Source of the DNA: Kiritimatiellia bacterium | Lineage (GTDB): Bacteria > Verrucomicrobiota > Kiritimatiellia > RFP12 > UBA3636 | Assembly (NCBI GenBank): GCA_050942875.1 | Contig: JBMNOD010000001.1 | Span: 16,597-80,596 of the forward strand | DNA: 64,000 nt | Reading direction: 5' to 3' | In this document: positions 8,189 through 61,600 of the stretch, piece after piece | Layout of the letters: each line of letters starts with the position of its first letter | Numbering within the stretch: the first letter of the stretch is position 1 | Translations under genes and position numbers: made by a program | The notes under the pieces: model-generated | Told to the model about the DNA's origin: nothing | The model's input: the letters and a program-made list of their open reading frames with translations, nothing else | The model's database searches: none

Positions 8189-8275
8189 GCGTCTGTGCGC
8201 AGTGTGGTAGAATTCCCGTATCAAATGAGATGTGGGGCAGGGCGATGAACGCCCGTCGAATTCAGTGGAGTCCTA

Positions 8276-11200: not shown

Positions 11201-13794
11201 CGGACACCGAGGATTGGGATCAGGACTGGGACGAGTTTGGCACCGAGGATCGCGAGCGCCAGACCCAGTCGCTGGCCTGGCAGACGGTGTCCGTCCCCAT
11301 GCATCTCTGGGACAACGTCTTCATCCAGATCAAGCCCACAGGCTCCGACGGCGCCCTCGTCGTGGACGACCTGGACGTCAACGCCTGGCAAGGCCATACT
11401 TTGTACGACGAAGCGCTTCTCGAGAACGACCCGCACGAAGAACTTCCCTGGAAGGCGACCTACGCTGTCAGGTCAAAAGTCAACAACAACATCTTGTACG
11501 AACTGAACCGGACGCGGGCGAACCCTGTCGAGAACCAGATGATCGTCTCCCCGCTGCTCGTGAACGGCATCGGCGACCTGCTCTTCAACTACCGCGTCGA
11601 CAAGGGCAACGTGACATTCTCAGTCCAGACGCTGCTGATCAACGGCGCCGTCGACCAGACGCTGCTCACGACGAACGTCGTGGCCGGATCGACGATCGAG
11701 CGCATGTACGTCGCCGCCCTGACCAACATGACCGGGCGCTTCCGCATCATCATCGATCCTCTCGAGAGCTCTCGCGATGGCATCCTCTATATCGACAATC
11801 TCAAGGCGACCGACTATCCCGCCGTCGGCGATACGTCGTGGGCGGCCTACAACCTCCTGATCTCCACCTACCCTTGGGATCCGGAGTGCAAGTTCGACGG
11901 CGCGGCCAACACCGACTACCGCAGCGCCACGATCAACGACGGCTATGCGAACAACACGCCGCTTGGGGTCGCCTACGATGAAGACGAGCCCTACCTCCAG
12001 TCGCCGAGGATCGAGACCGGCATTGGCGAGGTCAGCTTCTGGTACCGTCGCTATCCCGGTGCGACGAAGCCCGGCAAAGTGTACTTGAAGGCGGCCAAAA
12101 ACGTTCAGGACTTCGACAACAACCCTGGCGCCGTCCTCACGCTGGGTGTGGTGGATCTCAATCCGGATTCGGAAACTTTGGATTCTCAGATCGCCTGTCT
12201 TGAAAACATCACCAACGTTACAACCGACGTCTGGACCTACTTCAGCGTCGAGTTCTACAAGGCCGACTACAAAATCCTGCGTCTGTATGGCGACACGGAG
12301 ACCGCCGGACGCGTGATGGTCGACAACATCATCGTGACGGAGCCGGTTCGGTCGTCGATCGACATCGAGTCCGTCGAGCTGATTCCCGAGATTCCGCTCT
12401 CCACCGACAAAGTCGGCGCTCGCGTGAAGCTTGTGAATCCGCGCATGAATCCGACCGGCATTGAAGTCTATCTGCTCTACACCATTGGCACCAACCAATG
12501 GGGGCGTGAAAACTGGTCGCCCAGCGCGGCTTCCGTTAAGCTTGATCCGGTGCCCGGCAAGCCCTACGAATACGTTGTCGCCGATGCCATCCCGCAGCTG
12601 CCGGTCGACACGGTCGTCCAATACACCGTGGAGGTCGTTTACCAAGGCACCTTTGCATCACCCGTCTATTACGACGAGGCGTTCGTCAACCCGTCTTGGT
12701 ACGCCCCCATCGATTTGAACGAACAGTATGCCGACGCCGGAAAATCACCCTACTACTATGTCTTCTCGGTCGGAACCAACGTTGTGTTCATCAATGAGTT
12801 CCTGCCCTACGCCTATTCGTACGGCGCCTATCTCGGACTTGATGAACAGTATGTGGAGCTGGTCGGCATAGACAAGGGGAATGTTGCAGGCTGGAAGCTT
12901 GAGCATGTCAATGTGGAGGCCAGCGCCTATGAAGACGTCGTCAAGTGGACGAATGTGTTGAAGCCCGGCGCCAAATTCGAGTCGCGCTTTGTCGCCGGCT
13001 CGCAGGAGCCGAAGGACAAGGGCTGGGGCTTCTACACCCTCGCTTGCTCCGGAGTCAACAGCGAGAATCCCAACTTCTCCGTCGTTTCCCCGAATGAGAT
13101 TGTTGTGGATCAGGAGCTCTTCCCGCGACACTTCTACAATGAAAACCACACTGGTTTTGCGCCAGGATTTGAAGGCCGTGGCATGGGCGTCCCTGGGGCG
13201 CTCTGCCTGCGACGCAGCATGGGCGCCTATGTCCAACGGATTGCTTGGGGCTCGGACACGGCGGTGGCCCAGCTTCTGCAGCGAGGCTATGAGTACGCCG
13301 GAGACCGAGGCACTGGAGCCAACCGCCGTCGGCGCGTTTTCATGTGGGCCGACAATGGCGCCTTGGAACCAGAGCTTGCCTGGGTGTTGCTGTCCGAGTC
13401 TCTCTACTCGCCAGGCTACTACAACGATGGCCAGGCCGAGCTGATCTGGAAGATCGATCCCGCCGAAGAAGGAGAACCGACGACCAAGCCGGAAATCGGA
13501 CAGCCCAGGATCACGTCGATCGCCCTTGGCGCGACCTCGGCGACGCTCGAATTCGACGTCTGGACGGTCAACGGGGTCGAGCTGGCGAACGACAACTTCA
13601 CCTGGTACGTCGAGACGTCCGAGGATCCGGCCTTCGCCAATCCCACAGCCCATCCGATTAATGCGGGAACCGCTCCTACTCCCATTACCGCGCCTTCGGA
13701 CGGCACGCCCAGTTCCTACTCGGTCGACGTTGACTTCGGCGCCCCGGTCTCGCAGAGTCTGTTCTATCGGATCAAGGCAGTCCCCAGACCTTGA
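8276..13794 (+). CDS. giant secreted protein (1839 aa), function unknown, with lamin-tail-like segment
   Basis: GGAG Shine-Dalgarno then ATGATG at 8276; signal peptide MMKTIKSFSMKSLACAMAALVASATLVGA. Long beta-rich Thr/Asn/Tyr/Trp-rich sequence. Near aa ~1490, NVVFINEFLPYAYS...DEQYVELVG...NVAGWKLE resembles a lamin-tail domain. No catalytic motif recognised. Confidence 0.7.
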
Positions 13795-24240: not shown

Positions 24241-25275
24241 ATGCACCTCGAAAACATCCTTGTCATCAGTCCAAACTGGCTTGGCGACGCCGTCATGGCG
24301 ATGCCGGCCGTGCAGCGGTTGAAAAAGAGCCGCCCGGACAGTCGCCTGGCCGTGCTTGCCAAGCCCGGCGTCGCCCCGCTCTGGTCGATGCACGAGGCCG
24401 CAGATCAGGTGGTCGTCCTGCCCAAGGGCACGGCGGCGACATTCCGAATGGCAGCGCGGCTTCGGCAGCAGCGTTTTTCAACGTGCTTCATCCTGCCCAA
24501 CTCCTTTCGCTCGGCGCTCATCCCCTTTCTCGCCGGCATTCCAGTGCGGCGAGGCACGGCATTCCACGGACGGCGGGCCATGGTCAACCAACGCGTTCGC
24601 CTGCCTGATGTCGATTCGCAGGGGGAGACCCTTCATCAGGCACGAGAGTACTTGACCTTGCTTTGCGGCACACCGGAGGGCGACCTTGCCGACACGGGCT
24701 TCCATCCACCCTCGCCTCGTCTCCTTGATGATCTGCCCCAAACTGAGGGGCCGATGATCGGCGTCGTTCCGGGCGCGGCCCGAGGCGAGTCGAAGCGCTG
24801 GAAGGGATTTGCGGAAGCCATCAAGATTGTCCTGCGCAGCCTGCCCGCCAGCCGGGTTGTCGTCGCAGGCGCCCCAAATGAAATGGCGCTCTGCGCCGAT
24901 GTGGCAGAGTCCATCGGCCCGGCGGCGATCAACGTCGCCGGGCGCACGTCGCTCCCGGAATTCGCATCCCTGCTCGGGAGCTGCCGGCTCGTGCTCTGCA
25001 ACGACAGCGGGGGCATGCACCTCGCGTCGGCGGCCGGCGTGCCGGTCGTCGCCATCTACGGGCTGACCGATCCCGACAAAACGGGCCCGATCGGCTCCAA
25101 CGCCGTCGTGATCCGTGCCAAAGGCGTCCGACCTTCGCGACAGATTGCCCGCGAATGTCCCGTTGCCATTGCCGCTCTCGCGTCGATCCAACCAGAGGAA
25201 GTTGCGAAAGCCTGCCTTGAACGACTGAAAACGCCTCGCACGGGTGAAGCGCCTCCATCCGAACCCGAAGCCTGA
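24241..25275 (+). CDS. glycosyltransferase family 9 (ADP-heptose:LPS heptosyltransferase-like)
   Basis: N-terminus ILVISPNWLGDAVMAMPAVQRLK and C-terminal CNDSGGMHLA, typical of WaaC/WaaF family. Confidence 0.8.
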   Translation: MHLENILVISPNWLGDAVMAMPAVQRLKKSRPDSRLAVLAKPGVAPLWSMHEAADQVVVLPKGTAATFRMAARLRQQRFSTCFILPNSFRSALIPFLAGIPVRRGTAFHGRRAMVNQRVRLPDVDSQGETLHQAREYLTLLCGTPEGDLADTGFHPPSPRLLDDLPQTEGPMIGVVPGAARGESKRWKGFAEAIKIVLRSLPASRVVVAGAPNEMALCADVAESIGPAAINVAGRTSLPEFASLLGSCRLVLCNDSGGMHLASAAGVPVVAIYGLTDPDKTGPIGSNAVVIRAKGVRPSRQIARECPVAIAALASIQPEEVAKACLERLKTPRTGEAPPSEPEA

Positions 25276-25278
25276 GCC

Positions 25279-25890
25279 ATGAAAAAGATCCTCCTTCACG
25301 CCTGTTGCGGCCCCTGCTCGACCCACTGCGTCGCCACTCTTCGCGATGCAGGATACGAACCGACGCTGTTCTATTCGAACAGCAACATCATGCCCCAAGC
25401 GGAATACGACGTGCGGCTTGACTCGCTGCGTCGCTTCGCCCAGATCGCAAATGTGGCGCTCGTGGAGGATGTCCATGACAACGCTCGCTGGCTCGCTTGC
25501 ATCAAAGGCCTGGAAAACGAACCGGAAAAAGGCGCACGTTGCCGCCTCTGCTACGGCTTCAATCTCCGTCGCGCCGCTGCGTTCGCTCTCGAAAACGCCT
25601 TTGCCGAGTTCACGACGACCCTGACCGTGAGCCCCCACAAGCCCAGCCCCCTCGTTTTCGCCGCGGGCGACGCTGCCGCCGCCGAGACGACGGGTCTGTT
25701 CAAGCCGACATTCCGCCATTTCGATTTCAAGAAAAAAGACGGTTTTCTTGACAGCGTCCGCCTCGCCAAAGAATACGGTCTCTATCGCCAATCCTATTGC
25801 GGTTGTCTTTTGTCACAAAAGATGTCACAAAAGATTTTTCGATCTGGCTTTTCATTGTCTGGGGTTTGTGGTAGACTGCAAGGCAATTGA
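25279..25890 (+). CDS. queH: epoxyqueuosine reductase QueH (DUF208)
   Basis: LLHACCGPCS and CRLCY/YCGC cysteine clusters characteristic of QueH. Confidence 0.8.
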   Translation: MKKILLHACCGPCSTHCVATLRDAGYEPTLFYSNSNIMPQAEYDVRLDSLRRFAQIANVALVEDVHDNARWLACIKGLENEPEKGARCRLCYGFNLRRAAAFALENAFAEFTTTLTVSPHKPSPLVFAAGDAAAAETTGLFKPTFRHFDFKKKDGFLDSVRLAKEYGLYRQSYCGCLLSQKMSQKIFRSGFSLSGVCGRLQGN

Positions 25891-25923
25891 ACCCGCGTCA
25901 CGCGTCAAGGAGGCACTCCAATC

Positions 25924-27114
25924 ATGAGCTATATCGATTTCAGAAAAATCGTCTCGCTGGCCGTTGCAGGCCTTCTCGCGTGCATGGCTCTTGCACAAGG
26001 CCTCATCATCTGCCCCGACTGCTCGCATGAAGCCACAGGCGGAAACTTCTGCCAGCACTGCGGCGCAAGCCTCAAGAAGACCGAAGCCACGGCTTCCGAT
26101 CGCTCCGTGGCAACGCCTGCTGCACCCGAAGCCGTTCCGGAGACGGCTCCCGAAGCACCCGGCGCCGCAGCAGCCGCACGTCTCGTCCGCGAAGATCTGC
26201 GCACCGCTGCCGCCAGCTCCCCCACGACACCTGAAGGCGCCGCGCTTGCGCTCGCGGCGCTGACAAACGCCAAAGCCGTCTTCGCCGCCTTCCCCTCCCC
26301 CGACCTGACCGAGACGGAGCGCCGTAGCATCCATGCCGGAATCGCCGCCGCGCGCAACGCACTTTTCTCGACCCGCATTTCCTGCCCACGCTGCAAGGGC
26401 TTGGGACAAGAGGACGACATCCGGGAGATCGCCGCGCTCGACGGCAAGTCGGTCACCATGAAAGCCGGTCGCATCGCCTGCCGCCGCTGTCGCGGTGCTG
26501 GAATGATCGTCAAAGTCCGCCCCGTCTCCGAATTGCGTGCGATCATCGCTGCAGGGCGCCAACGTTTCGCCGACGCCTCACTCCTCGCCGGGCGCGTCAA
26601 AAACGGCAATGCCTGGATCGTCCCCGAATTGGAAGCCTTGGCCACTGTAAAGCAACAGGCTTTGCTCCGGCGCAACAGCGCCGACCCCTGCGCGGAGTGC
26701 GCCGGCTACGGTCGAAACGAATGCCGCAATTGCCGCGGCGCGAGCGTCGTGGAATGCAGCAACCGCAACTGCCGAAACGGACGCATTGAAAACAAGCCCC
26801 AGCCGCGTACAGGCACGAACCAGGGACGCATCGAAGCGGCTGAAGGCTTGCGCTTCACGATCTGTCCGGACTGCAAGGGCCTCGGTGGAATTGCATGCGA
26901 AACCTGCGGCGGTTCCGGCGCTGAAGCCTGTTCGTCCTGCAAAGGTTCCGGCGAACGCAAGGCCTGTGCCAAGTGCCATGCCGAAGGCACGATCGCCTGC
27001 AGAACGTGCAGAGGAACAGGCAAGGACAAGGCAGGACGCGATTGCCCCGCGTGCGGCGCGCAAGGCCTCGTGATCTGCACAACCTGCGGCGGAGACGGCT
27101 ATGGAAGGCAATGA
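25924..27114 (+). CDS. membrane-anchored cysteine-rich protein with zinc-ribbon and repeated DnaJ-CR-like CxxCxGxG motifs
   Basis: AAGGAGG Shine-Dalgarno; N-terminal TM/signal segment, then CPDC..CQHC ribbon and a Pro/Ala linker. The C-terminal half has >=10 CxxC pairs (CPRCKGLG, CRRCRGAG, CPDCKGLGG, CETCGGSG, CSSCKGSG, CRTCRGTG, CPACGAQG, CTTCGGDG). Confidence 0.65.
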   Translation: MSYIDFRKIVSLAVAGLLACMALAQGLIICPDCSHEATGGNFCQHCGASLKKTEATASDRSVATPAAPEAVPETAPEAPGAAAAARLVREDLRTAAASSPTTPEGAALALAALTNAKAVFAAFPSPDLTETERRSIHAGIAAARNALFSTRISCPRCKGLGQEDDIREIAALDGKSVTMKAGRIACRRCRGAGMIVKVRPVSELRAIIAAGRQRFADASLLAGRVKNGNAWIVPELEALATVKQQALLRRNSADPCAECAGYGRNECRNCRGASVVECSNRNCRNGRIENKPQPRTGTNQGRIEAAEGLRFTICPDCKGLGGIACETCGGSGAEACSSCKGSGERKACAKCHAEGTIACRTCRGTGKDKAGRDCPACGAQGLVICTTCGGDGYGRQ

Positions 27115-34004: not shown

Positions 34005-34726
34005 GGGTGTGTGTCAGAAAAGTGACAAACAAATCCAGCATTGCCTATGTCATGCGTATTGAAAGGGTTTTTGTGTAGTGCTTTCGCTGCAATCGAACCG
34101 TGCCTTGCACCGTCGCTGTTTTCTCCTTTTCAGGAGGTGTGTTTTCATTGCCATGCCCCTCCCTGCACGCCTCTGTGCCTGTTTAGTGAGGAGTGAGAAG
34201 TGAGAAGAGCGTAGTTCAGGCCGGGGACACCCCAGACCCCGTTTTTAGACAGGGTTGCAGGATTTGCAGGATTAGGATTGGACTCCCCGGAATCTTGTCA
34301 ATCTTGTAATCTTGTCCAAGACTGCGCCACCTGCGCCGCGCCACCTACGATTTTTGTGGCTATGAAGGGAACTTGGAATTGGGGCGTGGCCGTGGCGGCT
34401 TCGCCGAGCGGGGAATGGCCACGAAAAACACAAAGACGCACAAAAAGTGGGTGGCGGTGGTGGGGGTTTGGACAAGATTACAAGATTGACAAGATTGCCT
34501 TGGTGGATGGAATCCTATCCAAAAAACGGGGTCTGGGGCGTCCCCGGCCTGAACTACGCTCTACGCTCTTCTCACTCCTCACTATGCGAAGGGCGACGCG
34601 GCGCAGGTGGAGGTTTTTGATCTAAAACAGGCACAGAGGGGGATTGGTTTTGAATTTGGCATCAGGAATGCCTCCATGTTTCATGGAAGCTCAAGGAACC
34701 ATGTTACGATTCTGACACACACCTTG
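34005..34726. mobile_element. MITE-like non-autonomous element, copy 1 (~722 bp), with giant internal foldback
   Basis: 15-bp terminal inverted repeats GGGTGTGTGTCAGAA (34005..34019) and TTCTGACACACACC (34713..34726). 8-bp direct repeat TGCAAGCC abuts both ends (33997..34004 and 34728..34735). The interior ~34165..34645 is a long near-perfect palindrome. Confidence 0.6.
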
Positions 34727-34916
34727 CAAGCCTGTTCTTGAAGTTAACAGGTTAACCTGTTTTTAATCACAAAACCAAATCAACAATTGGTATTATCCTC
34801 AGCGTAAGTGGATAAAGGGGTAGGACGGCATTCGACATCAAGGCAAACCCTTCCTTGCAAGCTGGAACAATCCCCTGCTGTATCAATGGTCGCAACGTGA
34901 AATCTGGAGGCTTCAC

Positions 34917-37704
34917 ATGAATTGGAACAAGCACATCAACGAAAATGCATCACGCCAGGAAACACGCCTGCATGGGATGCGGAGACTCGCCCTCGTCGCG
35001 TTATTGACGGCTTCCGGCGCCGCCGGCGCCCAAACGCTGTACTGGGGCGGCGGAACCACGGACATCGCCGACGACACGCCCCTTCCAACCGACGCGGCGC
35101 TGCTGAGCGGCACGTGGGACGCCACGACCCGGAACTGGACGACATCCCCCACGCCCGGCGCCTACACGTCGTTCATCGACGGCGCCGACGTGCAATTGGG
35201 GTGCTACACGAACATCAACGACGATGCGCTCGTCACGCTCGAAGCCAATCAAAGAATCGGCTCCCTGACCGCCTGCATGAGCCTGGCGAACAATTACAAT
35301 CGCGACTTCGGACTGACCGCCGCCGCGCCCGTGACCCTGACGGCCTCCGGCGCGAAATTCGTCGTCAACACCGTCGCGCCGCAAGTGACACGGCGCATCA
35401 CGCTCTACCGCAACGTGTCCCTCGCCGGAGACGTCCCGTTCGAAAAAACAGGGCGCGGCAGCTTCTACATCAACTCCGACAGCAGCGGCTACACCGGGAG
35501 CGTCCGCACCTCGATGGGGACTCTCTATCTCGAGGCCTCCGGCTCCCTGAGGGGCGTGCCCCGCTTCGTGTTGGCCGGAATCCCCATGAGCGCCATAGCG
35601 ACCAGCTACAGCGGAAACCCCTTCAGCACGGGAAACATGACGTTCTCCCCCCCCCTCGGGGGCAAACGACAAGCTGGACGACTCGGCCTTGATCGTCTTG
35701 AAGCGCGGCGCCTTCGAATTCCGCGGAGCGGGGGGCAGAACCGAAACCATCGGACGCATCGATGTCGAGACATGGGGCGTTCTCGGAGCCTGGGAGGGCA
35801 ACACGGACGGCATCCTCACCCTCTCGGATCCAACGGCCGGCCTGACGCGCGGGAGCACCGGCTCGGGCATGGCGATGGTTCACGTCAACGCCTCGGGCGC
35901 GCCCTTGGGCAACTTCAGCGTGCCCAACGGCATCGAGACGGACACGCTTCTGCCCTGGATCGCCACCAGCCGGGGAAGCTTCATGTATGTGGACAGCGCC
36001 GACAACAACACCCTGAAACAGGTCGCGGTGAGCGAAGCCGCAACCAACGTGACGACCTGGACGAGCCTCTACGACGCCACGAGCAACGTGCGGGTCGGCA
36101 ACGACTCAAGCGTCGCGCTCGCGGGGGCGCTGGACGGCTCCCTGACCCTGAAGTCCCTCGGCTTCTTCAACAACAGCGCCACGACGTTGGACCTCGGCGC
36201 CACCAACACCCTGACCCTGGCTTCCGGCGGCATCGCCTTCTACCCGGGAAGCTGGGGTGCGCATCAGACCCTGGCCAACGGCGCCCTTGCCTCCGGCTCC
36301 GGCACGCTCCATCTGCACAGCGGCGACTCGTCCATGTCGACGACGCTGATCCTCTCTTCGCCCATCGTCGGCGCCGACACGGACGTCGTCAAGGCGGGCG
36401 TCGGCCAGGTGGAGTTCCGGGGAACGAACAGCAACACCTACGGCGGAACGACGATCGTCAACGGCGGGAATCTGCTTCTGGACAAGACGGACGGCGCCAT
36501 TGCCATCCCCGGCCCCCTGGTCGTGCGCTACGGCGGCTCGGTCGACGCCCATGCCGGCAACATCAACCCGACAGCGGACGTGACGATCGAGTCCGGGGGG
36601 TTGATCTACGCCCAGAGCCAGACTTACAGCGGCGTCCTGAAACTGACGGGCGGAACCCTGCTCTTCCCCAATGCATGGATCACCTTGAACCACGCGACAA
36701 CGCCCGGCCTCGTCTTCAACGGCGGCTGGATCAACTACGACTCGAGCTGGTACGGCGGCATCCACCTCCAGACCGACGTGCGCTACGAAAGCACGGCCGA
36801 GACGCAGGCGCGCTTCGAACGCCTCGAATGGAACTACCCCAACGCTTCCTACAACATCAGGCTCAACGGCGGCAACCGCACCTTCGACATCGCCGACTCC
36901 GCCACGCTCCCCGCCGACGTTCCCGAAATGGTCGTCGACACGGCCATCGTCGACGGCTCCCCGGCCGGCGGCGCCCTGACCAAGACCGGCGCGGGCGTCT
37001 TGCAGCTCTCCTACACGAACAGCTACACCGGCGGCACGACGGTGAACGGCGGGACGCTGCGCGTCGCGAAAATCACCGCGCCCGCCCAAAGCGGACTCTC
37101 CGCCTACACCGTGGCCGGAATCGGATCGCACATCGTCACCTTCACCCAACCCGTCGCAAGGGACATGGTCGTCGGCCAGCAGATCACCGGATCGACGATC
37201 CCGACGAATCGCACGGTCACGGTCGCGCGCGTCCTCAACGACTGCGAAATCATGACGAACGGCGAAAACGTCAACGGCGCTTCCACGAACGTGGCCGTCG
37301 CCGCCGTGTCGCGCGCCGGCAGCCTCGGCACGGGCCCCGCGACCGTCAACAACGCCGCCACGCTCGAAATCGACGACGGCATCGCGCTGGCCAACGACGT
37401 CACCGTCAACGCGGGCGGCACCATCGCCGCCTCCGGCGCAGGCCTCGGCAGCCTCGTCGTCGATGGCGGGACCGTCTCGGCCCGACTGGCGAAGGGCCCC
37501 CTCGCCATGACCGGCGCCTTGAGCCTCGACGACGCGACGCTGGCCGTCGACTCGCTGCCCGGCGACGAGCCCGTGACGATCCTGTCGGCCGCCGGCGGCG
37601 TCACCGGGAAATTCACGAGCATCCCCGACAAAGTCACCGTGCGGTACCACCCCACCTCCGTCACGGTGAGCCGGCTCAAAGGCACGCTCGTCATGGTTCA
37701 ATAA
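34917..37704 (+). pseudogene. PATR-repeat autotransporter-like surface protein gene, frameshifted at a C9 homopolymer (phase-variable or pseudogene)
   Basis: GGAGG Shine-Dalgarno and ATG 34917; signal peptide MRRLALVALLTASGAAGA. N-terminal part reads in frame 3 through C9 at 35647..35655, and the PATR-repeat body (TKTGAGVLQLSYTNSYTGGTTVNGGTLRV etc.) continues in frame 1 (track ORF 35689..37704). Removing one C gives a continuous ...NMTFSPPSGANDKLDDSALIVLKRGAFEFRGAGG... reading. The track ORF tail 35700..38027 is Arg-rich nonsense. Confidence 0.7.
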
Positions 37705-37774
37705 GTAAGGAAGGCTCAGGGGTCAACGGCAAGACCCCTGAACCCCGCTCCTGCCCCCTTGGGGTGCGCGGCAA

Positions 37775-38815
37775 CTATGTTGACGCGCACCCTTTTTCTT
37801 TCTCCCCGTCCCGCCACACCAGGTTGACGGCCATCGTGGCCGGATGCGTCGGCAGCCCGCGCTCGCCGACGCGCAACAGCGAATCCAGCCACTCCACGGC
37901 GCGCCGCCCCACTTCGTCCGGGGAAAGACAAAGCCCGCTCCCGACTGCGGTCGGTTCGCTGATCCACAAGTTCGTAAAGCCCACCGCGTCGGGAACCGCC
38001 CATCCGGAATTCTTCAGCAGCCAGTAGAACGCGTTGTTGAAGCCGAGGACCATGTCCGGCTTGTGCTTGCGCATCCATTCATCCACAAGACGCTCGACAA
38101 CGGCTTGGGGAACGGCGTCCTTGTCCGCCGGACGGCCCTCTCTGATCCAGATTTTGATCTTCAGCACGGGAATGCGGCTGCGAACGGGAACCATCTGCTG
38201 CCGATCGAGAAAGGCCGCCTCGCGGTCATGCATGTCCAGCGCCGTCGGCATGTCCAACAGCATCATCCCGATCCGGCGACAGCCGGCGGCCCGGCATCGA
38301 TCCCAGGCTTCCTGCACGGCGCGGAAGTGGTTCGGCATCACCAGATTCACCGGCGGACACTCCACGCCCTTGCTGCACGCCACGGAGATGAAGCGGGACC
38401 AGTCGAACCTGGCGCAGAATCCCGGCGTGAAAATCTGGCCCACCAGCACGCCGACGATGCCGCGGTTGTAGAGCGTCTTCGACAATTTCCAGGGATCCGG
38501 ATGATCCGAGCACACGTACTTCTCCAACCGGTAGCCATAGGCCGCCGCCCGCTCCTCCATGCCGTCAAGCCCCTCCAGTTTGTCCCCGACAACCGCCAGC
38601 GTCTCCCCCCCGGCTTTCGGACGACGCTTCCAACGATGCGCCGCCAGCGCGGACAACATCGGATCCGGACGATAGCCCAGCTTCGCGGCGATCTTCCAGA
38701 TGCGCGCCCGGGTCTCGGATGAAATGCGCGTGCTCCCGCGCAACGCCAGCGAGACGGTTGCATTCGTGCATCCGGCTTCCTTCGCAATGTCCCTCAGTGT
38801 CGGCCGCTTGTCCAT
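37775..38815 (-). CDS. LacI-family transcriptional regulator
   Basis: N-terminal HTH PTLRDIAKEAGCTNATVSLALRG plus periplasmic-binding-like sugar-binding domain; 346 aa. Confidence 0.8.
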   Translation of the reverse strand: MDKRPTLRDIAKEAGCTNATVSLALRGSTRISSETRARIWKIAAKLGYRPDPMLSALAAHRWKRRPKAGGETLAVVGDKLEGLDGMEERAAAYGYRLEKYVCSDHPDPWKLSKTLYNRGIVGVLVGQIFTPGFCARFDWSRFISVACSKGVECPPVNLVMPNHFRAVQEAWDRCRAAGCRRIGMMLLDMPTALDMHDREAAFLDRQQMVPVRSRIPVLKIKIWIREGRPADKDAVPQAVVERLVDEWMRKHKPDMVLGFNNAFYWLLKNSGWAVPDAVGFTNLWISEPTAVGSGLCLSPDEVGRRAVEWLDSLLRVGERGLPTHPATMAVNLVWRDGEKEKGCAST

Positions 38816-38874
38816 GGCTTGATTATAGCAAATCGGTTTGTCCGGTTAAATGAAAAAAACGCCGGCGTTGGAAG

Positions 38875-39133
38875 TGGGTGTGTGTCAGAATCGTAACATG
38901 GTTCCTTGAGTTTCCATGAAACATGGAGGCTTTCTTGATGCCAACTTCAAAATCAACAGGCACACTGGACGTGGGAGCGGCATGGCAATGAAAACACGCT
39001 TCTGAAATCAAGAAGGGACGGCGACGATGCAAGGCACGGCTCGATTGCGGTGAAAGCACTGCACCAAATTCCCTTTCAATGCGCATGACATGGGCAATGC
39101 CGGATTTGTCTGTCACTTTTTTGACACACACCC
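38875..39133. mobile_element. MITE-like element, copy 2 (259 bp, inverted and internally deleted relative to copy 1)
   Basis: TIRs GGGTGTGTGTCAGAA (38875..38889) and TTTTGACACACACCC (39119..39133), with 8-bp TSD TTGGAAGT at 38867..38874 and 39134..39141. The two ends are ~90% identical to the two ends of copy 1 in reverse complement. Confidence 0.6.
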
Positions 39134-45401: not shown

Positions 45402-48233
45402 TTAGGATCCATCGCTGTCCTTCGGCACGGGTGTCGCATCCGAAACCCGCAACGGCAGGATCATCCGGCGTTTCACGACGTCAAGGGACGTCGTCGGCTT
45501 GGCGCGCCGAGGCAGAAGCCCATACTCGGGAATGCCAAAGGCAAGGCGCAACGCGGCGCTCTCCGCATCTTCGGGGGCCGTGAAATGGAGAACCGTCTTG
45601 AACGCCGTTCCCAACCGACCGGGATGGACGTTCAAATCCGGGCAGAAAGGCTCATCGACCCGGCTGACAACGCGACCGGATGCATCAAGCACCTTCACCG
45701 AAAGCCCCAGGTTGTCGGGGAAGGCGAAATCCGGCTTCACATCCCAGACCATCTCAAGGGCGAACCGGGTGCCCGATGCGTCAAGGCGCTGCAACCCGGA
45801 AACGCCGCGCAGCACGAGGCCGCCATCATAAAACGACGCGCCCGATCCTTCAATGACGTCCGGCATGGGCGGCGGTCGATTGGCATGCAGCATCCCGCCA
45901 TAGAACATCAGATCGGCCGACCGCGCTCCTTCGGGACGCGGCGGCGCCAGCTTGAAGACGGTCATGCCGCCCACCGAGAACGCCTCGGCCTCCACCCCGG
46001 CGGCGCGAAGCGCCGCCCGCGTCGGCCCGGCCTCGGCGTCTTCCACGGCGACGGCCACGCCGTCAGCCGGCCCAATGTGCGAAACCGGCACGTCGTCCGC
46101 GACCTCGCGCGACGTCCACACCGCGCCGTCCGTCAGCCGGTGGATTTCCCGTGCATGCCAGCGATCCGCAAACACCCGATCGATTTCCTCGACCTGGATG
46201 CGCCGCGCCACCGCCGCCATGTCGAGATCCGCAGAGGACGATGAAGGCGTCATCACGTGCAAGGTCTCCAGAAAGATGCTCGGGCAGGAGGAATGGATCG
46301 ACATGCGCACACGCAGTTCGCTCACCTCGGCTGCCGGGAACGTCTTTTCAATGCGAAGGGCGCTGCCGAGGTAATGGAAACGCGGCCCGCTCCAATAATG
46401 CCCCGTCTCCTTGAAGAGACCGGAGAGGACGTGCCACTCGCCGCTCGCAGGGTCGCGGCCTTCGACCGACCAGGCCTCCATCGCGTGGCGGGGGCGGTTG
46501 ATCGCCCGAAGACCGCAAACCTTGACGGGCGCGGCGAAAGCGATGTGCAGCTCGCACTGGCGCGATCCGTCCAGATCGCGCAACTCCGCAAACGTCTCGC
46601 CATTGCAATCCGTCAGCTCCGCCCGCCAGTCCCTTCCGGCGCCATCCGTCATCGCCGTGATCGTCTCCGGCGGCAGGGCCGTGCGCGTCCCTGACGGAGG
46701 CAGAATGTCGTAATGGATGCGCATGCCGGGAATTTTAACGAACGTCGCGCGTCCACACGTGTTGGACAGGAAATGATCGAATCCACGGAAGTTCTCAAGC
46801 ACGCCCGGATGGTCCGCGTTTTCGAGCCGATCGAAAAACGGCGCGTAACGGTAGAGCTTCGGCGACACCGCGCAGACCGCCTCTTCGGTAGCCCAGTTGA
46901 CGCCATAGAGAATGAAGTCCGCGAAGAACTCCTTCGGCAAACCGGGATGCGCCGCCAGCGCAAGCGCCGTATCATGCCACCCGGCCTTGATGTTGCCGTG
47001 GTGCTTCAAATCCGGCAAGCGCGCCCCGACATCGAAAGCGACGAAAAGGATGCCGACGCCCGCCACCGCACGAAGGCGCCACGCGCGTTTGCGCGGGGCG
47101 GCGGCGGCCAATTGCATCAGCACCCCGATGCCGCTGCCGGCGAGCACCGCGAAGACCGGCACAAACGGCAGCAGGTAGCGCAACGAGTGGATTGCGCCAA
47201 AAGACGACAGCATGTACGCCGCCGCAAAGGCGCCGACGAACAGGAAGCACGCGCAAATCAAGCGCCGGAGCCGGCGCACGGGCGCGCCGCCGACGCGCAC
47301 CGGAAGCGCAGCGGCCGCAAGCGCCAAAACCAGAAAGGCAAGCAAGACGACCAGACCAAGCTGCGGCTTCCCGTCCGGAACGGCATACGCAAAAAGCGCC
47401 GGCAGCCGTTCCGTGAACAGAAGCACGCCCGAGCGAACCGTCTCCCGCACCCCCGGCGAGCCGCCGGCGGATTCAAGCGACTGCCAGCCGTTCCTCGCAT
47501 TCCAAATCCACCAAGGCGCACTGCCCGCGAAGAATCCAATCAAGCCGCAGACCAGGACAGACGGGCGAAAGAGCCGAAGGCGAAAACGCCACAACAGCAT
47601 GACGCAGACGACGGCCACGGCAGGCATCACGAGCCAGAAGTTCCAGAAGCCCAGGCCGACGAGGAAGCCCAGCAGCAAAAACCGCCGGGAACTCGCGTCC
47701 GGAACGGCGCCCTCGCCGCCTTCGTCGTCCGCCCCGAGGAACACCGCCTCGTGCAGCAGCAGCACGGTCAGCAGCAGCCCCAGCGCATAGCCGCCGCGCG
47801 GCGAGGCCATGTAATGGAAATAGCCGCTCGGCCCCACGAGGCAGAGTGCGGACGCCGCCACCGCCGCCACCGGGCCGCCGACCCGCCACGCCAGCCGATG
47901 GACGGCGAGGGCCATCGCAAAGGCCATCAGCCCCGTGCCCAGGCAGACCGCGAAGGGCGTCGGCCCGAGGAACAGCCCGAGCAGCGCGCTGAAGGCGGGC
48001 TCCAACGACCCCATGTAGGCCTGCCCGTAGAAAAAGACCGGAAAATCCACGCCCGCAAGCATGTGCCGGACCATCAGCACCACCACGGCATAATCCGGAT
48101 TGCCATGCAACGCATACCACTTCGCGCCGAGCACGCGCATGACCAGACAGGCGCCAAGGACGAGAACCGAAGCGGCGATCGCCAGCCCGCGCATCGTTGG
48201 GGTTCTGTTCTCGTGACTCGGGTTGCACTTCAT
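45402..48233 (-). CDS. large polytopic membrane protein (GT-C/ArnT/YfhO-like) with ~550-aa C-terminal extracytoplasmic domain
   Basis: 943 aa; ~11-13 predicted TM helices in the first ~400 aa, then a soluble domain. Start overlaps the stop of the upstream paralogue-like gene by 1 nt. Confidence 0.6.
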   Translation of the reverse strand: MKCNPSHENRTPTMRGLAIAASVLVLGACLVMRVLGAKWYALHGNPDYAVVVLMVRHMLAGVDFPVFFYGQAYMGSLEPAFSALLGLFLGPTPFAVCLGTGLMAFAMALAVHRLAWRVGGPVAAVAASALCLVGPSGYFHYMASPRGGYALGLLLTVLLLHEAVFLGADDEGGEGAVPDASSRRFLLLGFLVGLGFWNFWLVMPAVAVVCVMLLWRFRLRLFRPSVLVCGLIGFFAGSAPWWIWNARNGWQSLESAGGSPGVRETVRSGVLLFTERLPALFAYAVPDGKPQLGLVVLLAFLVLALAAAALPVRVGGAPVRRLRRLICACFLFVGAFAAAYMLSSFGAIHSLRYLLPFVPVFAVLAGSGIGVLMQLAAAAPRKRAWRLRAVAGVGILFVAFDVGARLPDLKHHGNIKAGWHDTALALAAHPGLPKEFFADFILYGVNWATEEAVCAVSPKLYRYAPFFDRLENADHPGVLENFRGFDHFLSNTCGRATFVKIPGMRIHYDILPPSGTRTALPPETITAMTDGAGRDWRAELTDCNGETFAELRDLDGSRQCELHIAFAAPVKVCGLRAINRPRHAMEAWSVEGRDPASGEWHVLSGLFKETGHYWSGPRFHYLGSALRIEKTFPAAEVSELRVRMSIHSSCPSIFLETLHVMTPSSSSADLDMAAVARRIQVEEIDRVFADRWHAREIHRLTDGAVWTSREVADDVPVSHIGPADGVAVAVEDAEAGPTRAALRAAGVEAEAFSVGGMTVFKLAPPRPEGARSADLMFYGGMLHANRPPPMPDVIEGSGASFYDGGLVLRGVSGLQRLDASGTRFALEMVWDVKPDFAFPDNLGLSVKVLDASGRVVSRVDEPFCPDLNVHPGRLGTAFKTVLHFTAPEDAESAALRLAFGIPEYGLLPRRAKPTTSLDVVKRRMILPLRVSDATPVPKDSDGS

Positions 48234-50476
48234 TAGAACCTGCTTTCGTAGCGGACGTCGACGCGCGACGCCCCATTCGGTCGAATGCCAATGAAGACGA
48301 CGCCGTCGCCGGCCTCGTGCGGAACCAGCTCGGCCGGCGGATCGACGCGGAGCCGGTCGTTCCAGTTGTAGCGGATCACCGCCTCCTCCGGCGGCGTCCC
48401 GCCGAAATCAACGCGGATGTGGTTGAAGTCTGCTTCAATGACGCCCTCGCCCTTGGCGAACCGTCCGCCGGAGTCCTTGACGGCGAAGACGACGAAATCG
48501 CGATTCGCGGATTCGTCTTGATCAACCAAGGTGGCGACTTCGCGGAAAAGCTCCGGATTCGCGCAGCAATGCTCAATGTGGTCGCGACGGAAGGAAATCA
48601 CATGCGTCACGCCGTGGAGCTTCGCAAATTCATGGTATCCGCCGGGCTTTTTCCGAAAGGCCTGCGGCGGATAGTTCATCTCCACCATCCCGCGGGGGAA
48701 GCCATAGTAGTCGCAGGACATCATCTCGCGCCCGGCGAGCTTGGGCAGGTAGGCGATGTGGCCGCGTCCATACGCATGCACCGCCGATCCCGCGAAGAGC
48801 AGCCGCCCGTCCTCGGGCACGTTGGCCTCGATCCAATCCGTGAGGTCGTGGACGATCCGGCGCGTCCCGACATAGGCGTCGTGCGTCCGCGCGCCGTAGT
48901 AGCGCATCGTGTTCTGAAGCGAGCACAGCACCAACGCCAGCACCACGGCCTGCAGGATCGGCGCGAACCGGGCGCGCGACACGAGCACCTTGCGCAAGAT
49001 GCAGGCGGCGGGCAGCGCCATCAAACAGGATGCCACGACACCCATCCGCACGAGCTGCATGTTGGGCAGGCAAACCGGCCCCATCGTGAACACGACGACG
49101 AGAAACAAAAACGGCGCCACCACCCAGCGCCGCAAACGCCGCCACGGCATGAACCACATCCCCGCCAGGCCGGCAAACAGCAGCAGCGGGTTCATGTCCG
49201 CGCAAATCGACATGAGCGTCGTCAGGAATTCACGGCGAAACGCACGGAGCCCAATGGCGTCGTCCGAAGGATTCTCCAGCACGTGCCCCAAAACTTCCTT
49301 GCCCAAAAACGAGCCCGCCACCGTCGGAATCAGCGCCGCAACCGTCACCGTCGCGGCCAGAAGAAATGCAACGCGACGCGACGACCGCCACCAATGCCGG
49401 GCGTGCCCCAGCACAAGCAATCCCAGCGGGAGGCCCAGCATCAGCATGGGCGGCCACTGGCCCATGAAGAAAATCGAGACGACCATCCCCACAAGCACCC
49501 AATGCGATGGACGCGGCCGCATCGCCGCCGCATGGAGAAACGCCAGCGCCGACGGCAGCATCGCCATCGACAACGACGCGCCGACCGTTCCAAACCGAAG
49601 CAGCCAGAGCATGAAAAGCGGCCCCTGCGCCAAGGCGAAGATCGCCCCGAGAAGCCCGCCGATCATCGAGAGACCCGCCGCGCGAAACCCCGCATGCGTC
49701 ATCCACGGCACAAAGAAGACAAAGGCGAAAAGGAAGACATAGGGCGACGCCACATGCGGCGGCAGCAGGAGCCAAAGCGGCGCGCCCAGAATCGCGTAGC
49801 CGGCGACGCCCGACGACGTGATCACGCTGTTGGCGACGCCCGCGTTCCAGTGCGGCACGTAGTTCTCGCGCCACGGAAACGCCCCGAAAAACTCCGAGAT
49901 TCGAAAGAGAAATGACGGATGGTCGTCCGAATACAACGCCCCGAAGCCCGTGTGACGGAGCAGCAGGCAGCAACACGCAACCTGGGTGGCCACAAGCCCC
50001 GCCGCCAGCACCTTCGGAAGCCATCGCCGCGGATCCCAGATCGTGAACAACGGCACCGCGCCAAAGGACAGCAGGACAAACCACATCTGCACCGCCTTGA
50101 AGCTCTGAAATGAAATCCCCGTCGTGATCGGCCAATTCGCAAAATAGTATTTCGGAATCCGTGCCACCGCTGAAAGCGCATAGACGGCCAGCGCCACAAG
50201 CAGCACCCACTCCAGCGGCGCCAGCCCTCGGACCGCCTTGGCGTCCGTGCCTGCATCGTCCACGCGCCCCAGCCGGCGCCGCAGCCGCTGCGAGACCCAA
50301 AACGACGCCGCCATGCCCAGCGCCCAAACGGCAAGAAACGCCAAATCACGAAGAAACCAGCCATGAATGAAGAAAATACGATCATTCGATCGAGCGGCCT
50401 GCCGAACGCACAGCGCGCAAAGGGCCATGTAGAGAAGAACCTTCAGAGCTTTGCGACTGTTCGACAGCTTAAACAT
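48233..50476 (-). CDS. large polytopic membrane protein (GT-C-like) with C-terminal soluble domain
   Basis: 747 aa; N-terminal ~520 aa highly hydrophobic multi-TM, C-terminal ~220 aa soluble. Confidence 0.6.
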   Translation of the reverse strand: MFKLSNSRKALKVLLYMALCALCVRQAARSNDRIFFIHGWFLRDLAFLAVWALGMAASFWVSQRLRRRLGRVDDAGTDAKAVRGLAPLEWVLLVALAVYALSAVARIPKYYFANWPITTGISFQSFKAVQMWFVLLSFGAVPLFTIWDPRRWLPKVLAAGLVATQVACCCLLLRHTGFGALYSDDHPSFLFRISEFFGAFPWRENYVPHWNAGVANSVITSSGVAGYAILGAPLWLLLPPHVASPYVFLFAFVFFVPWMTHAGFRAAGLSMIGGLLGAIFALAQGPLFMLWLLRFGTVGASLSMAMLPSALAFLHAAAMRPRPSHWVLVGMVVSIFFMGQWPPMLMLGLPLGLLVLGHARHWWRSSRRVAFLLAATVTVAALIPTVAGSFLGKEVLGHVLENPSDDAIGLRAFRREFLTTLMSICADMNPLLLFAGLAGMWFMPWRRLRRWVVAPFLFLVVVFTMGPVCLPNMQLVRMGVVASCLMALPAACILRKVLVSRARFAPILQAVVLALVLCSLQNTMRYYGARTHDAYVGTRRIVHDLTDWIEANVPEDGRLLFAGSAVHAYGRGHIAYLPKLAGREMMSCDYYGFPRGMVEMNYPPQAFRKKPGGYHEFAKLHGVTHVISFRRDHIEHCCANPELFREVATLVDQDESANRDFVVFAVKDSGGRFAKGEGVIEADFNHIRVDFGGTPPEEAVIRYNWNDRLRVDPPAELVPHEAGDGVVFIGIRPNGASRVDVRYESRF

Positions 50477-53625: not shown

Positions 53626-53867
53626 CCCGCAAGTCTCGCCGCAAATGTTTTCGTGGTCAGTCAGATTGGCCGGATCAGGCCGATCAGCATTTCCGTACAG
53701 CAAAGTGGACGCGGCGTCCTCGCCGCGTGTCGCCGCCTGCGCCCCAGTCTCCACCCTGCCACACGCCCTCTTTCATCATGGCCACGAAAAACAAAGACCA
53801 CACAAAAAAAATCTGTGCTTTCTATGCTTTCTATGGATAAAAACCGCCAAGGACGCCAAGCAACTCT

Positions 53868-53947
53868 GTAATTCTGTAATCCATAATTCGTAATTCCACC
53901 ACCCTCGCCCATCCACCTTCTTTTTGCGTTTTTCGTGGCCATTCCCC
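53868..53947 (+). repeat. 80-bp direct repeat, left copy, flanking the R-M island
   Basis: GTAATTCTGTAATCCATAATTCGTAATTCCACCACCCTCGCCCATCCACCTTCTTTTTGCGTTTTTCGTGGCCATTCCCC; near-identical copy at 56354..56433. Confidence 0.7.
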
Positions 53948-54278
53948 ACCCACCCATGCCACCCTTTCACAGTTCGACAAAGTTCGCGACAAAGCGACAA
54001 AGCTGTCCTCCGGCAAATCACAAATCACAAATCACAAATCTAAAATCACTGGCGACAGGCATCGACTGGACAACAGGGGCTTGAAACACAGCCCTCCGGC
54101 CCAAATTTCAAGTTTCAAGTTTCAAACAACACAGAGAACCACAAGAAAAAATCTGTGCTTTCTTGTGGTGGTTCATGCGTTTGACCCACATTCAGTTGAA
54201 TGCTATACTTTCCGTCAGTCTTTCATGCTTTAATACGGGTCATACGGGTCTTGCCCTTTACTCACGGAAACGACAGAC

Positions 54279-56056: not shown

Positions 56057-56353
56057 CCCGGCCACAAATAGCGTTGCGCACGGAGATTGAGGCATGGGAT
56101 CTGGAATTTGGCGTTGGAAAAGGGGCACGGACATTCCTGTCCGTGTTCGTCCACGGGTTGGAAAACCCGTGCCCCTGATTTGCAGCATGAATTATGGCCG
56201 GGTTAGTAGTTGGCTGGCAGACTTCACATGTCTTGGCTGCTGGTTGTCAGGAATTCCTGCGTCGGGTTGTTTGCCAATTTGGATTCCTCAGGCGAATCTT
56301 GCCAATCTTGCAATCTTGTCTAAAAAACCACTCGGCGAAGCCGCCACAGCCAA

Positions 56354-56433
56354 GTAATTCTGTAATCCATAATTCGTAATTCACCACCCTCGCCCATCCA
56401 CCTTCTTTTTGCGTTTTTCGTGGCCATTCCCCC
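56354..56433 (+). repeat. 80-bp direct repeat, right copy, flanking the R-M island
   Basis: Matches 53868..53947 except for one indel (TTCCACC vs TTCACC). Confidence 0.7.
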
Positions 56434-56584
56434 AACTCGGCGAAGCCGCCACAGCGCCACACCCCAGCTTCCAGTTTCAAGTGTCAAGTTTCCAACCAAT
56501 ATGCTATTCTTTCACCCATGCAACCATGCAGGACTCTAGACCATGGTCCATGGACTCTCGAAGTTTTTCCCATCGCCCACCACC

Positions 56585-56796
56585 CTTCGTCTAGTGAGGA
56601 GTGAGAAGTGAGAAGAGCGCAGTTCAGGCTGGGGACACCCCAGACCCCGTTAGGATCTACGTTTCTGTATCTTTCTGTTGTCTTCTGTGGACAAAACTTT
56701 TACCCCCACCCACCCCTCCGGTCAAACCGGGGTCTGGGGCAGCGCCCCAGCGGAAACTTCTCTCTCCTCTCTACGCTCTCCTCACTAAAACCAACC
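56585..56796. repeat. foldback (long inverted-repeat) element related to the core of MITE copy 1
   Basis: Left arm GTGAGGAGTGAGAAGTGAGAAGAGCGCAGTTCAGGCTGGGGACACCCCAGACCCCGTT and complementary right arm ...CCGGGGTCTGGGGCAGCGCCCC...CTCTCCTCAC. The same arms occur at 34186..34245 and 34525..34583. Confidence 0.6.
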
Positions 56797-58227: not shown

Positions 58228-60188
58228 CCCCCGCCCCCGCCACGCCAACGCCCGCGCGCGGCGTCCGGCTCACGCTCGGCACCGCCGGCCACATCGACCA
58301 CGGCAAGACCTCCATCGTCCAGTCCCTCACCGGAACCTGGTGCGCGCGCCTGCCCGAAGAAAAGGCGCGCGGCATGACCATCGACGTCGGCTTCGCCGCC
58401 TGGGACGACGGCGAAGGCCTGAACATCGGCATCGTGGACGTCCCGGGCCACGAGCGCTTCATCCACAACATGGTCGCCGGCGCCAGCGGCATCGACGTGG
58501 CGATGCTCGTCGTGGCGGCGGACGACGGCGTCATGCCGCAAACGCTCGAACACGTCCAGATCCTCCGCATGCTCGGCGTCCGCAAGGGACTCGTCGTCCT
58601 CAACAAATGCGACCTCGCCGACGAGGCGCGCCAGGCGCAGGTCGTCGCCGACATCCGCGCCTGCGTCAAGGACACGTTCCTCGAGAACGCCGCGTGCGTC
58701 CCGTTCTCGGCCAGGACGAACGCCGGGCTCGACGCCCTGAAGGCCGCCTTGCGCAAGGTCGTCTCCGAAACGGCCGAGCGCGACGTCTCGGGTCCCTTCC
58801 TGCTCCATGTCGAACGGGCGTTCCAGCTCAAGGGCTTCGGCACCATCCTCTCGGGCATCCCGCGCTCGGGCAGCGTGAAAATCGGCGACGAAGTCGAAAT
58901 GCTGCCGGACGGCACGCGCCACCGCGTCCGCGGCATCCAGGTCTACGGGCGGGACGTCGAGCAGGGCTTCGCCGGCGAATGCGCGGCGCTGCGCCTCTCC
59001 GACCTCTCGCGCGACGCCGCCGCGCGCGGCAAGGTCGTCGCGCTGCCCGGCTACTTCGGCGCGCACCGCTTCCTCAACGCCCGCTTCCTCCACCTCCCGC
59101 AGAACCTCAAGGCGCTGGAGCCCCGCACCGCCATCATGCTCCACGTCGGCACGTCGGAAACGCCCGGCCACCTCGTCCTCCCCACGCTCGACAAGCTCGC
59201 CCCCGGCGCGGAGTCCTACGTCCAAATCCAGCTCGAACGCCCCGTCGTCGCCGCCCCCGGCGACTTCTACCTCGTCCGCCGCCGCTCCCCCGCCCAGACC
59301 CTTGGCGGCGGCACGCTGATCGACTGCTCCGACACCAAACTTCGCCGCGGGCGCGGCGACTGGGCCCGGGCGCGCGCCGAGGCCGAGGCCGCCGCCGGCG
59401 ACGACGCCGAGAAGATGCGCCTCGCCCTCGAAAAGGCCGGGAACGATCCCGTCCACCTCGACAACTGGGCCCGCCTCGCCTCGGTCGCCCCCGACGCCGC
59501 CCGCGCCGCCGCCGACGCCCTGGCCGCCGTCGGCAAGGCCATCGCGCTGCCGGGCCTGCGCTACGTCGCCCCCGCCGCCCTCGACGCCGCCCGCGCCGCC
59601 GTCGTCGCGCGCCTCGACTCCCTCCACGCCGCGAACCCGCTCCATCGCGGCTTCGACCGGAAGACCCTCTGCCAGGGCCTCCCCGGCTCCCGCCTCCTCC
59701 TCGACCGCGTCTTCGACGCGCTCCTCGCCGACGGCGATCTCGTCCGGGAAGCCGACCGCTTCTTCCTCAAGGCCCGCGAACCCGTCCTCGACAAGCGCCA
59801 GACCGCCCTCGCCGACAACATCGCCGGCCTCTTCGAAAGCGCGCGCTACGAAACGCCGCGCCCCGATTCCCTGCCCGCCCGCCTGCACATCACGCAGGCC
59901 GAAGCCGACGCCCTCCTCGTCAACCTCTGCCACCGCGGCGTCCTCGTGCGCCTCTCCGACGTCGTCCTGCTCCACGCCGCCTGGGTGGCGGAGTCCGAAC
60001 GCCGCCTCCGCGAGCATCTCGACGCCCATGGACGCATCGACGCCGGCGCCTTCAAGGACTTGCTCAAGACCTCGCGCAAGTTCGCCATCCCCCTTCTCGA
60101 ACACTGGGACGCCGCCGGCCTCACCCGCCGGACTGGCGATTTCCGAGTCCTCCGCCAACCCGCCAACCAAACCCCAAGCCAGCCATGA
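58224..60188 (+). CDS. selB: selenocysteine-specific translation elongation factor
   Basis: Start MTPAPATP at ATG 58224, overlapping the selA stop. GTPase motifs GHIDHGKTS, DVPGHERF and NKCD, followed by a long C-terminal winged-helix region; 654 aa. Confidence 0.88.
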   Translation: MTPAPATPTPARGVRLTLGTAGHIDHGKTSIVQSLTGTWCARLPEEKARGMTIDVGFAAWDDGEGLNIGIVDVPGHERFIHNMVAGASGIDVAMLVVAADDGVMPQTLEHVQILRMLGVRKGLVVLNKCDLADEARQAQVVADIRACVKDTFLENAACVPFSARTNAGLDALKAALRKVVSETAERDVSGPFLLHVERAFQLKGFGTILSGIPRSGSVKIGDEVEMLPDGTRHRVRGIQVYGRDVEQGFAGECAALRLSDLSRDAAARGKVVALPGYFGAHRFLNARFLHLPQNLKALEPRTAIMLHVGTSETPGHLVLPTLDKLAPGAESYVQIQLERPVVAAPGDFYLVRRRSPAQTLGGGTLIDCSDTKLRRGRGDWARARAEAEAAAGDDAEKMRLALEKAGNDPVHLDNWARLASVAPDAARAAADALAAVGKAIALPGLRYVAPAALDAARAAVVARLDSLHAANPLHRGFDRKTLCQGLPGSRLLLDRVFDALLADGDLVREADRFFLKAREPVLDKRQTALADNIAGLFESARYETPRPDSLPARLHITQAEADALLVNLCHRGVLVRLSDVVLLHAAWVAESERRLREHLDAHGRIDAGAFKDLLKTSRKFAIPLLEHWDAAGLTRRTGDFRVLRQPANQTPSQP

Positions 60189-61381: not shown

Positions 61382-61431
61382 GGCATAATGCCTCAAAAAC
61401 CTTTGTCGCGAACTTTGTCGCTAACCTTGTC

Positions 61432-61600
61432 GCCCCCCAATATCGTACGAGCACGGCTTCGTCCCCGCCCCGGGGCTTCGTCCCCCCCCAATATCGTACG
61501 CGCGCGGCTTCGCCCCCCAATATCGTACGCGCTCGGCTTCGCCCCCCAATATCGTACGGGCGGGGCTTCGTCCCCGCCCCGGGGCTTCGCCCCCGCCCAT
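61432..61600. repeat. tandem ~30-bp repeats (CCCCCCAATATCGTACG core, 4 copies)
   Basis: Direct repetition is visible in the sequence; a related copy lies at 62876..62915. Confidence 0.6.

Follow-up and report, generated by a model that had tools for sequence, protein, structure and literature searches.

The poly-C tract of Bordetella bvgS is an example of homopolymer phase variation. In systems of this kind, which include the poly-G tracts of Campylobacter and the C7 tract of Mycobacterium tuberculosis glpK, a change of one base toggles a gene between a full-length and a frameshifted state while the rest of the gene stays intact (PMC6321876; for glpK, PMC6667613). In C. jejuni NCTC 11168, every tract that reaches a length of 8 is variable (PMC6321876). 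Reversible homopolymer frameshifts are described for glpK in the high-GC M. tuberculosis (PMC6667613, PMC10334774), and the C9 tract analysed here likewise lies in a high-GC genome, that of a Kiritimatiellia bacterium. The Kiritimatiellia gene has in common with these systems the one-base toggle and an otherwise intact coding sequence. However, no length polymorphism was observed here, relatives lack the tract, and no repertoire of tracts is seen; moreover, the organism is an uncultured Kiritimatiellia bacterium, whereas the phase-variable comparators are host-restricted pathogens. Chlamydiae share the PVC superphylum with Kiritimatiellia, and the Chlamydia pmp proteins resemble the Kiritimatiellia protein in being beta-helical repeat proteins with a signal peptide, which in the Kiritimatiellia case is a putative one. 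At the pmp homopolymers, the frame differs between sequencing efforts, and whether this reflects artefact or slippage has been raised as a question (PMC3323650). The pmp proteins have the C-terminal barrel of genuine autotransporters together with GGA(I/L/V)/FxxN motifs, whereas PATR is the only Pfam hit of the Kiritimatiellia protein, which has no barrel. The pmp tracts also recur across paralogues and species, in contrast to the Kiritimatiellia C9, which is unique to one lineage. A further comparison is with the passengers of type Va autotransporters (Hbp, SepA, Hap, IcsA, fusolisin), which share with the Kiritimatiellia protein PATR repeats (PF12951/TIGR02601) and, going by the model of an orthologue, an all-beta solenoid.

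The window, that is, the whole 64-kb stretch of DNA that was analysed, carries a PATR gene that changes frame at a run of nine C (35647-35655; forward strand, as for the other features of this gene) followed by TCGGGGG. No homopolymer in the window is longer, the runners-up being C8 at 61482 and A8 at 53804. It occupies codons 244-246 of 928 and stands in the local sequence ACGTTCT-CCCCCCCCC-TCGGGGGC. The gene starts at ATG 34917, six nucleotides after a Shine-Dalgarno GGAGG (34906-34910), which bears out the good ribosome-binding site noted in an initial reading of this DNA from its letters (hereafter the sequence-only reading). Its N-terminal part (34917-35655) is in frame 0 and comprises a putative signal peptide and about 245 codons, with homology to the orthologues as far as ...GNMTFSP(P). 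The C-terminal 683 codons (35656-37704) are in the +1 frame, where homology runs from SGANDK through VMVQ to the stop at 37704 with no further lesion. Past GNMTFSP, frame 0 encodes arginine-rich nonsense and meets no stop before 38025-38027, whereas the +1 frame is interrupted by a TGA at 35638-35640 and is then open from 35641 to the stop at 37704. This TGA, together with the limits of homology, confines the shift to 35641-35658, i.e., to the tract, exactly where the sequence-only reading had placed the frame switch.

Removal of one C fuses the frame starting at 34917 to the frame ending at 37704 and yields a product of 928 aa that is colinear, without gaps, with intact orthologues of 912-928 aa. 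In an alignment with 15 homologues, the junction ...GNMTFSPP-SGANDKLDDSAL... matches ...GNMTLSPV-AGPNDKLGDSAL... column by column with 0 gaps, in agreement with the initial proposal that deletion of a single C restores the reading. Between them, the two frames give tblastn coverage of residues 1-928, and the gene has no lesion other than the extra C. With eight C the tract reads TCC CCC CCC TCG, encoding S-P-P-S. In silico, the frame toggles between C8, which gives the full-length 928-aa protein, and C9, which gives 246 correct codons and is out of frame thereafter. The gene is mis-called in the NCBI annotation, which lists only a 671-aa ORF from TTG 35689 without a signal peptide (MGI5867852.1, 'MAG: autotransporter-associated beta strand repeat-containing protein [Kiritimatiellia bacterium]', from a 113,193-bp contig that is also in IMG).

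The three closest orthologues (65-68% identical) have CTCTCGCCCGTCGCC, CCTACGCTCAACGCC, and CCCGGCCTCCAATCC at the site of the tract, and none of nine homologous genes contains a G/C run of at least 7, either at this site or elsewhere. By this comparison the poly-C tract is lineage-specific, and the fixed in-frame tract that the sequence-only reading had suggested looking for in orthologues was not found among these nine. Alleles with C8 or C10 are absent from a 5.8-billion-protein database and from JGI metagenome contigs; the JGI contigs were scanned for a tract of variable length between exact flanks and for at least seven C followed by the right flank, with 0 matches each time. When the 671-aa ORF and the neighbouring LacI regulator were looked up as exact sequences, only run SRR31066179 and the MAG itself came back. 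The organism is thus known from one run, in which a mixed C8/C9 population would give the same consensus; a literature search found no paper mentioning SRR31066179.

The gene retains the marks of normal constraint on both sides of the tract. Identity to the orthologues is 68-72% after the shift versus 59-60% before it, and the ratio of PATR to LacI divergence is 1.24-1.41 for the window versus 1.14-2.28 among intact orthologues. By these two measures there is neither decay 3′ of the shift nor acceleration of the lineage. The absence of acceleration, taken with the intact remainder, indicates that the gene has been under normal constraint for nearly all its history and that the lesion is young. 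The frameshift would then be very recent, reversible, or not real. An ordinary young pseudogene produced by a homopolymer indel would look similar: the one frameshift falls where the gene is most mutable, and the 977-aa partner gene found in related loci has been lost as well. However, there is no second lesion and no faster divergence here, and the regulator and the upstream motif are intact; if this is a pseudogene, it would have to be a very recent one.

Expectation for such a run depends on the null. Dinucleotide shuffling predicts 1.16 C9/G9 runs per window, and on this null the C9 by itself is unremarkable. This test was not significant; synonymous-codon shuffling was used in its place. 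Against it, the 33 other genes of the window (50.3 kb) have no G/C run of at least 8, where 2.7 are expected, and two of at least 7, where 8.8 are expected; Pro-Pro is encoded as CCCCCC in one of 51 cases. The tract is an outlier relative to the genome's own coding sequence, as represented by these 33 genes. The purging of G/C runs from genes suggests that slippage is a real liability in this genome, and the avoidance measured in the window provides a usable baseline for judging such tracts.

The gene product is predicted to be an exported beta-solenoid with PATR repeats rather than a classical autotransporter. As read from the sequence, its N-terminus, MRRLALVALLTASGAAGA|Q, is signal-peptide-like, and it is conserved among homologues. 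Pfam detects PATR (PF12951) in two stretches (E=1.6e-10) and no other domain, NCBIfam assigns TIGR02601, and a profile search against PDB sequences matches the PATR stretch only (fusolisin, IcsA, and a serine-protease autotransporter). An AlphaFold2 model of orthologue P0002 (68% identical; 19 aligned sequences) is an all-beta solenoid with a pLDDT of 87.8 and a pTM of 0.87 that extends to about 10 residues from the C-terminus. The description of the body as made of PATR repeats therefore holds for the two stretches detected, the rest being a long beta-solenoid. The top PDB folds for the model are the passengers of Hbp, SepA, and Hap, with TM-scores of only ~0.17, and neither Pfam nor NCBIfam finds a C-terminal beta-barrel translocator (PF03797). 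Members of the family instead have a short conserved motif at the C-terminus, G-x-x-[VIL]-x-[VI]-[RKQ], except for one that carries PEP-CTERM. A classical autotransporter adhesin was ruled out by the absence of the barrel from the Pfam, NCBIfam, and PDB profile searches and from the P0002 model; the genes beside members of this family, which encode LacI, CBM-like, and LamG proteins, also set it apart from type Va autotransporters. The surface adhesin proposed in the sequence-only reading is not borne out, given the missing translocator and the CBM-like and LamG neighbours of relatives. At the tract itself, the equivalent residues of P0002 (241-243) form a turn between two strands in the model, and the alignment shows a stretch of four to five residues that is different in every orthologue. 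Pro-Pro at such a variable inter-strand turn could have a neutral origin.

The loci of the three closest orthologues (L011-L017, in three distinct versions) contain the PATR gene, a gene for a CBM_4_9-like protein of 885-977 aa, and a convergent LacI gene, followed by a divergent LamG protein gene where the contig extends far enough. The window has the PATR and LacI genes, but the CBM-like and LamG partners are missing; the 977-aa partner gene of the closest orthologous loci fetched (L011-L017, and also L004) has been lost. The LacI-family regulator (37775-38815, reverse strand) is intact and is 76% identical to the LacI of L011. A GC-rich hairpin with a 14-bp stem in the convergent gap between the two genes (37711-37746) is likely a terminator. 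Upstream of the PATR gene, the motif GTTAACAGGTTAAC (34743-34756), a candidate operator or promoter element, lies ~165 nt 5′ of the ATG, as it does in L011-L017, and occurs once in the window versus 0.01 expected. This shared position indicates that the regulatory region has been retained. The neighbouring genes in relatives suggest a role in glycan use rather than in host interaction.

Our preferred reading, to which we give about an even chance, is that the C9 is a real but incidental null allele, produced recently by slippage from C8 and able to revert. Replication slippage would have lengthened a lineage-specific C8 (S-P-P-S) to C9, recently knocking out a conserved, LacI-linked, putatively Sec-exported beta-solenoid with PATR repeats. 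In the C9 state, ribosomes would leave the correct frame after codon 246 and then meet no stop for ~790 codons, running past the hairpin at 37711-37746. The outcome would be an aberrant 1036-aa junk product or a non-stop complex, with no functional protein apart from a small leak. Such a leak could arise if tRNA-Pro slipped by +1 from CCC 35652-35654 to CCC 35653-35655, which gives exactly the authentic sequence; CCC-N is a known type of frameshifting site. At a length above the G/C cut-off of 7, the tract is physically expected to slip both ways and would be long enough to return to C8 at some rate. Nothing indicates that selection has made it an on/off switch. Should the C9 be real, a single slippage event has silenced a conserved exported protein in an environmental bacterium, and the case at most adds to an already known kind of homopolymer frameshift.

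The slip site also raises the idea that the C9 form is functional, with the full-length protein made by programmed recoding, through efficient +1 ribosomal frameshifting on CCC-C or through transcriptional slippage. On CCC CCC C, tRNA-Pro can make a cognate-to-cognate +1 slip, and a slip on the last CCC yields exactly F-S-P-P-S-G-A-N-D. The site is, however, conserved in no orthologue, its A-site codon is CTC rather than a stop or an obviously slow codon, and no Shine-Dalgarno-like stimulator is seen upstream. With frame 0 open to 38027, most ribosomes would make junk, and we regard recoding as very improbable. That the organism instead has C8 and an intact gene, the extra C being a miscall of the homopolymer in the consensus, is unlikely but deserves more weight. 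The source is a MAG; the C9, as the longest homopolymer in the window, is where indel errors cluster; and the gene is otherwise perfect and is repaired by exactly one base. However, a contig from an independent Logan assembly of run SRR31066179 (SRR31066179_344714, 4,209 nt) is identical to window positions 34694-38902, C9 included. The two assemblies come from different assemblers, probably working on the same reads, and both give C9. The Logan contig ends ~30 nt into each flanking MITE and breaks only at repeat borders, as if it came from a clean k=31 de Bruijn graph assembly and not from error-rich reads. The expected error types also fit poorly: nanopore errors mostly shorten homopolymers and seldom make them longer, and an Illumina consensus is rarely wrong at a 9-mer. 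A generally indel-prone assembly was rejected in that no other gene in the 64 kb is broken at a homopolymer, including those with runs of 6-7. The coding runs of at least 7 that were checked elsewhere in the window are in frame (C7 in LacI, T7 in a ribonucleotide reductase gene, and A7 at 52301). No other unexplained frame change emerged when the window was scanned for GC3 phase; the two same-strand candidates are the gene borders lysS/next gene and selB/selD, and the three ORFs that share a frame at 24241-27114 are separate, ordinary genes. The agreement of two assemblies on C9 and the lack of any other homopolymer-broken gene make a real majority allele likelier than an error, and the caveat of a sequencing error in the sequence-only reading carries less weight accordingly. 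An ambiguity like this one is on record for the poly-G tracts of Chlamydia psittaci pmp genes (PMC3323650).

The sequence-only reading had favoured a contingency locus. If the tract had evolved as such a switch, selection would maintain it, the population would always hold ON (C8) and OFF (C7, C9, and C10) cells, and the MAG consensus would have caught an OFF majority; such variation might serve, perhaps, in escape from a phage or predator that uses the exported protein as a receptor. The tract exceeds the G/C cut-off of 7 for phase-variable genes (PMC6321876) and lies in the 5′ quarter of a gene for an exported protein, at a variable inter-strand turn that tolerates any residues. It is also the only coding G/C run of at least 8 in a genome otherwise depleted of them, judging by the window genes, which could mean selection for mutability. 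The rest of the gene, the upstream motif, and the regulator are all intact, and the Chlamydia pmp poly-G tracts, whose frame varies between sequencing efforts, provide a precedent from the same superphylum (PMC3323650). Nevertheless, the tract is missing from all nine homologous genes, no second tract-bearing gene is seen in the 64 kb, and the protein database and JGI metagenomes contain no other tract length. A run of at least 8 arises in 20% of neutral synonymous shuffles of the PATR gene, and the genomic context points away from host interaction. The cut-offs, moreover, derive from AT-rich Campylobacter, which lacks mismatch repair and in which G/C runs are rarer by chance than at 64% GC. 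Among the features of contingency genes, a tract of sufficient length and a frame toggle are present here, but conservation or enrichment of the tract is not. With a lineage-specific tract and no length variant in the collections searched, selection for switching seems improbable to us. Its more elaborate form, in which a C8/C9 switch controls a LacI-regulated exported beta-solenoid in a probably free-living, non-chlamydial member of the PVC superphylum, perhaps for phage evasion, with the OFF product cleared as a non-stop complex, is a shade more doubtful still. In a limited search of the literature, no paper dealt with phase variation in Kiritimatiellota, and a true switch might therefore be the first example of simple-sequence-repeat phase variation in this group, extending homopolymer phase variation from pathogens to Kiritimatiellia. 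As a general caution, a lone homopolymer frameshift in a MAG is readable as phase variation only with read-level data.

The proposed ON/OFF cassette had also drawn on the LacI gene and on the MITEs that flank the pair. The PATR and LacI genes sit between the fabZ/lpxA/secretin genes and the yggS/tatD genes, and their pairing is old and syntenic, being found in the orthologous loci as well. The pair is indeed bracketed by MITE copies in inverted orientation, M1 (34005-34724, with a nested palindromic element at 34184-34584) and M2 (38876-39133, 258 nt). However, M1 and M2 are flanked by separate perfect 8-bp target duplications, TGCAAGCC and TTGGAAGT, respectively. These indicate two independent intergenic insertions rather than the two ends of a mobile or invertible cassette, so the MITEs flank the gene but do not bound a cassette. 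A composite transposon or an invertible segment was rejected on the same grounds, and the promoter lies inside the segment.

The genes of the window strongly avoid G/C homopolymers. Across 50 kb of coding sequence, there are two G/C runs of at least 7 nt and none of at least 8 nt, while synonymous shuffling of the same genes predicts 8.8 and 2.7, respectively. In Pro-Pro pairs, CCG is used as the first codon in 38 of 51 cases; the commonest proline codon overall in these coding sequences is CCC.

The DNA 5' of the PATR gene, which encodes a probably exported beta-solenoid protein (window 34917..37704), contains GTTAACAGGTTAAC approximately 160-170 nt upstream of the gene. This motif is found at 34743-34756 in the window and at the orthologous loci L011 (5845-5858), L014 (250-263), and L017 (318-331), and it is kept although the upstream DNA around it has diverged. 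We regard GTTAACAGGTTAAC as a candidate operator, perhaps used by the adjacent LacI-family regulator. On the minus strand, a sigma-70-like promoter with an extended TG, TTAACC-16-TATAAT, is located at 38822-38849. The start codon of the LacI gene lies only ~7 nt past the end of this promoter, suggesting that the LacI mRNA is leaderless or near-leaderless. The MITE family in the window is 258 nt in length, with terminal inverted repeats GGGTGTGTGTCA and target duplications of 8 bp, and its copies occupy 34005-34724 and 38876-39133. Nested inside the former is a palindromic element of ~400 nt (34184-34584), relatives of which occur at 53780-53950 and 56290-56790.

The PATR-protein family shares a conserved short C-terminal motif, ...V-x-V-x-Y...G-x-x-[VIL]-x-[VI]-[RKQ], present at window 37600-37704 and in homologues P0002-P0019. 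One homologue, P0013, carries a PEP-CTERM tail in its place. It is possible that the short motif serves as an alternative sorting signal. The orthologue at L004 (5977-6699; Lentisphaeraceae MAG CAYLUN010000004.1) is just 240 aa long, with its N-terminal ~200 residues joined in frame to the last ~45 and the entire central solenoid missing. The partner gene, of 975 aa, is still present after it. Either a genuine deletion or a collapse of the assembly could account for this short form.

Elsewhere in the window are two very large ORFs, of 1,986 aa (7834-13794) and 1,001 aa (45402-48407). Both have a coding-like GC3 signature, and neither contains a Pfam domain at E<=0.001. The selB and selD genes (58250-61381) overlap by a few bases; the organism therefore probably uses selenocysteine. 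Located 3' of selD, at 61415-61600, are approximately four tandem units of ~30 nt each, GGCTTCG-Cn-AATATCGTACGNGC, with C tracts of 6, 8, 6, and 6 nt, the second being the only other C8 of the window.
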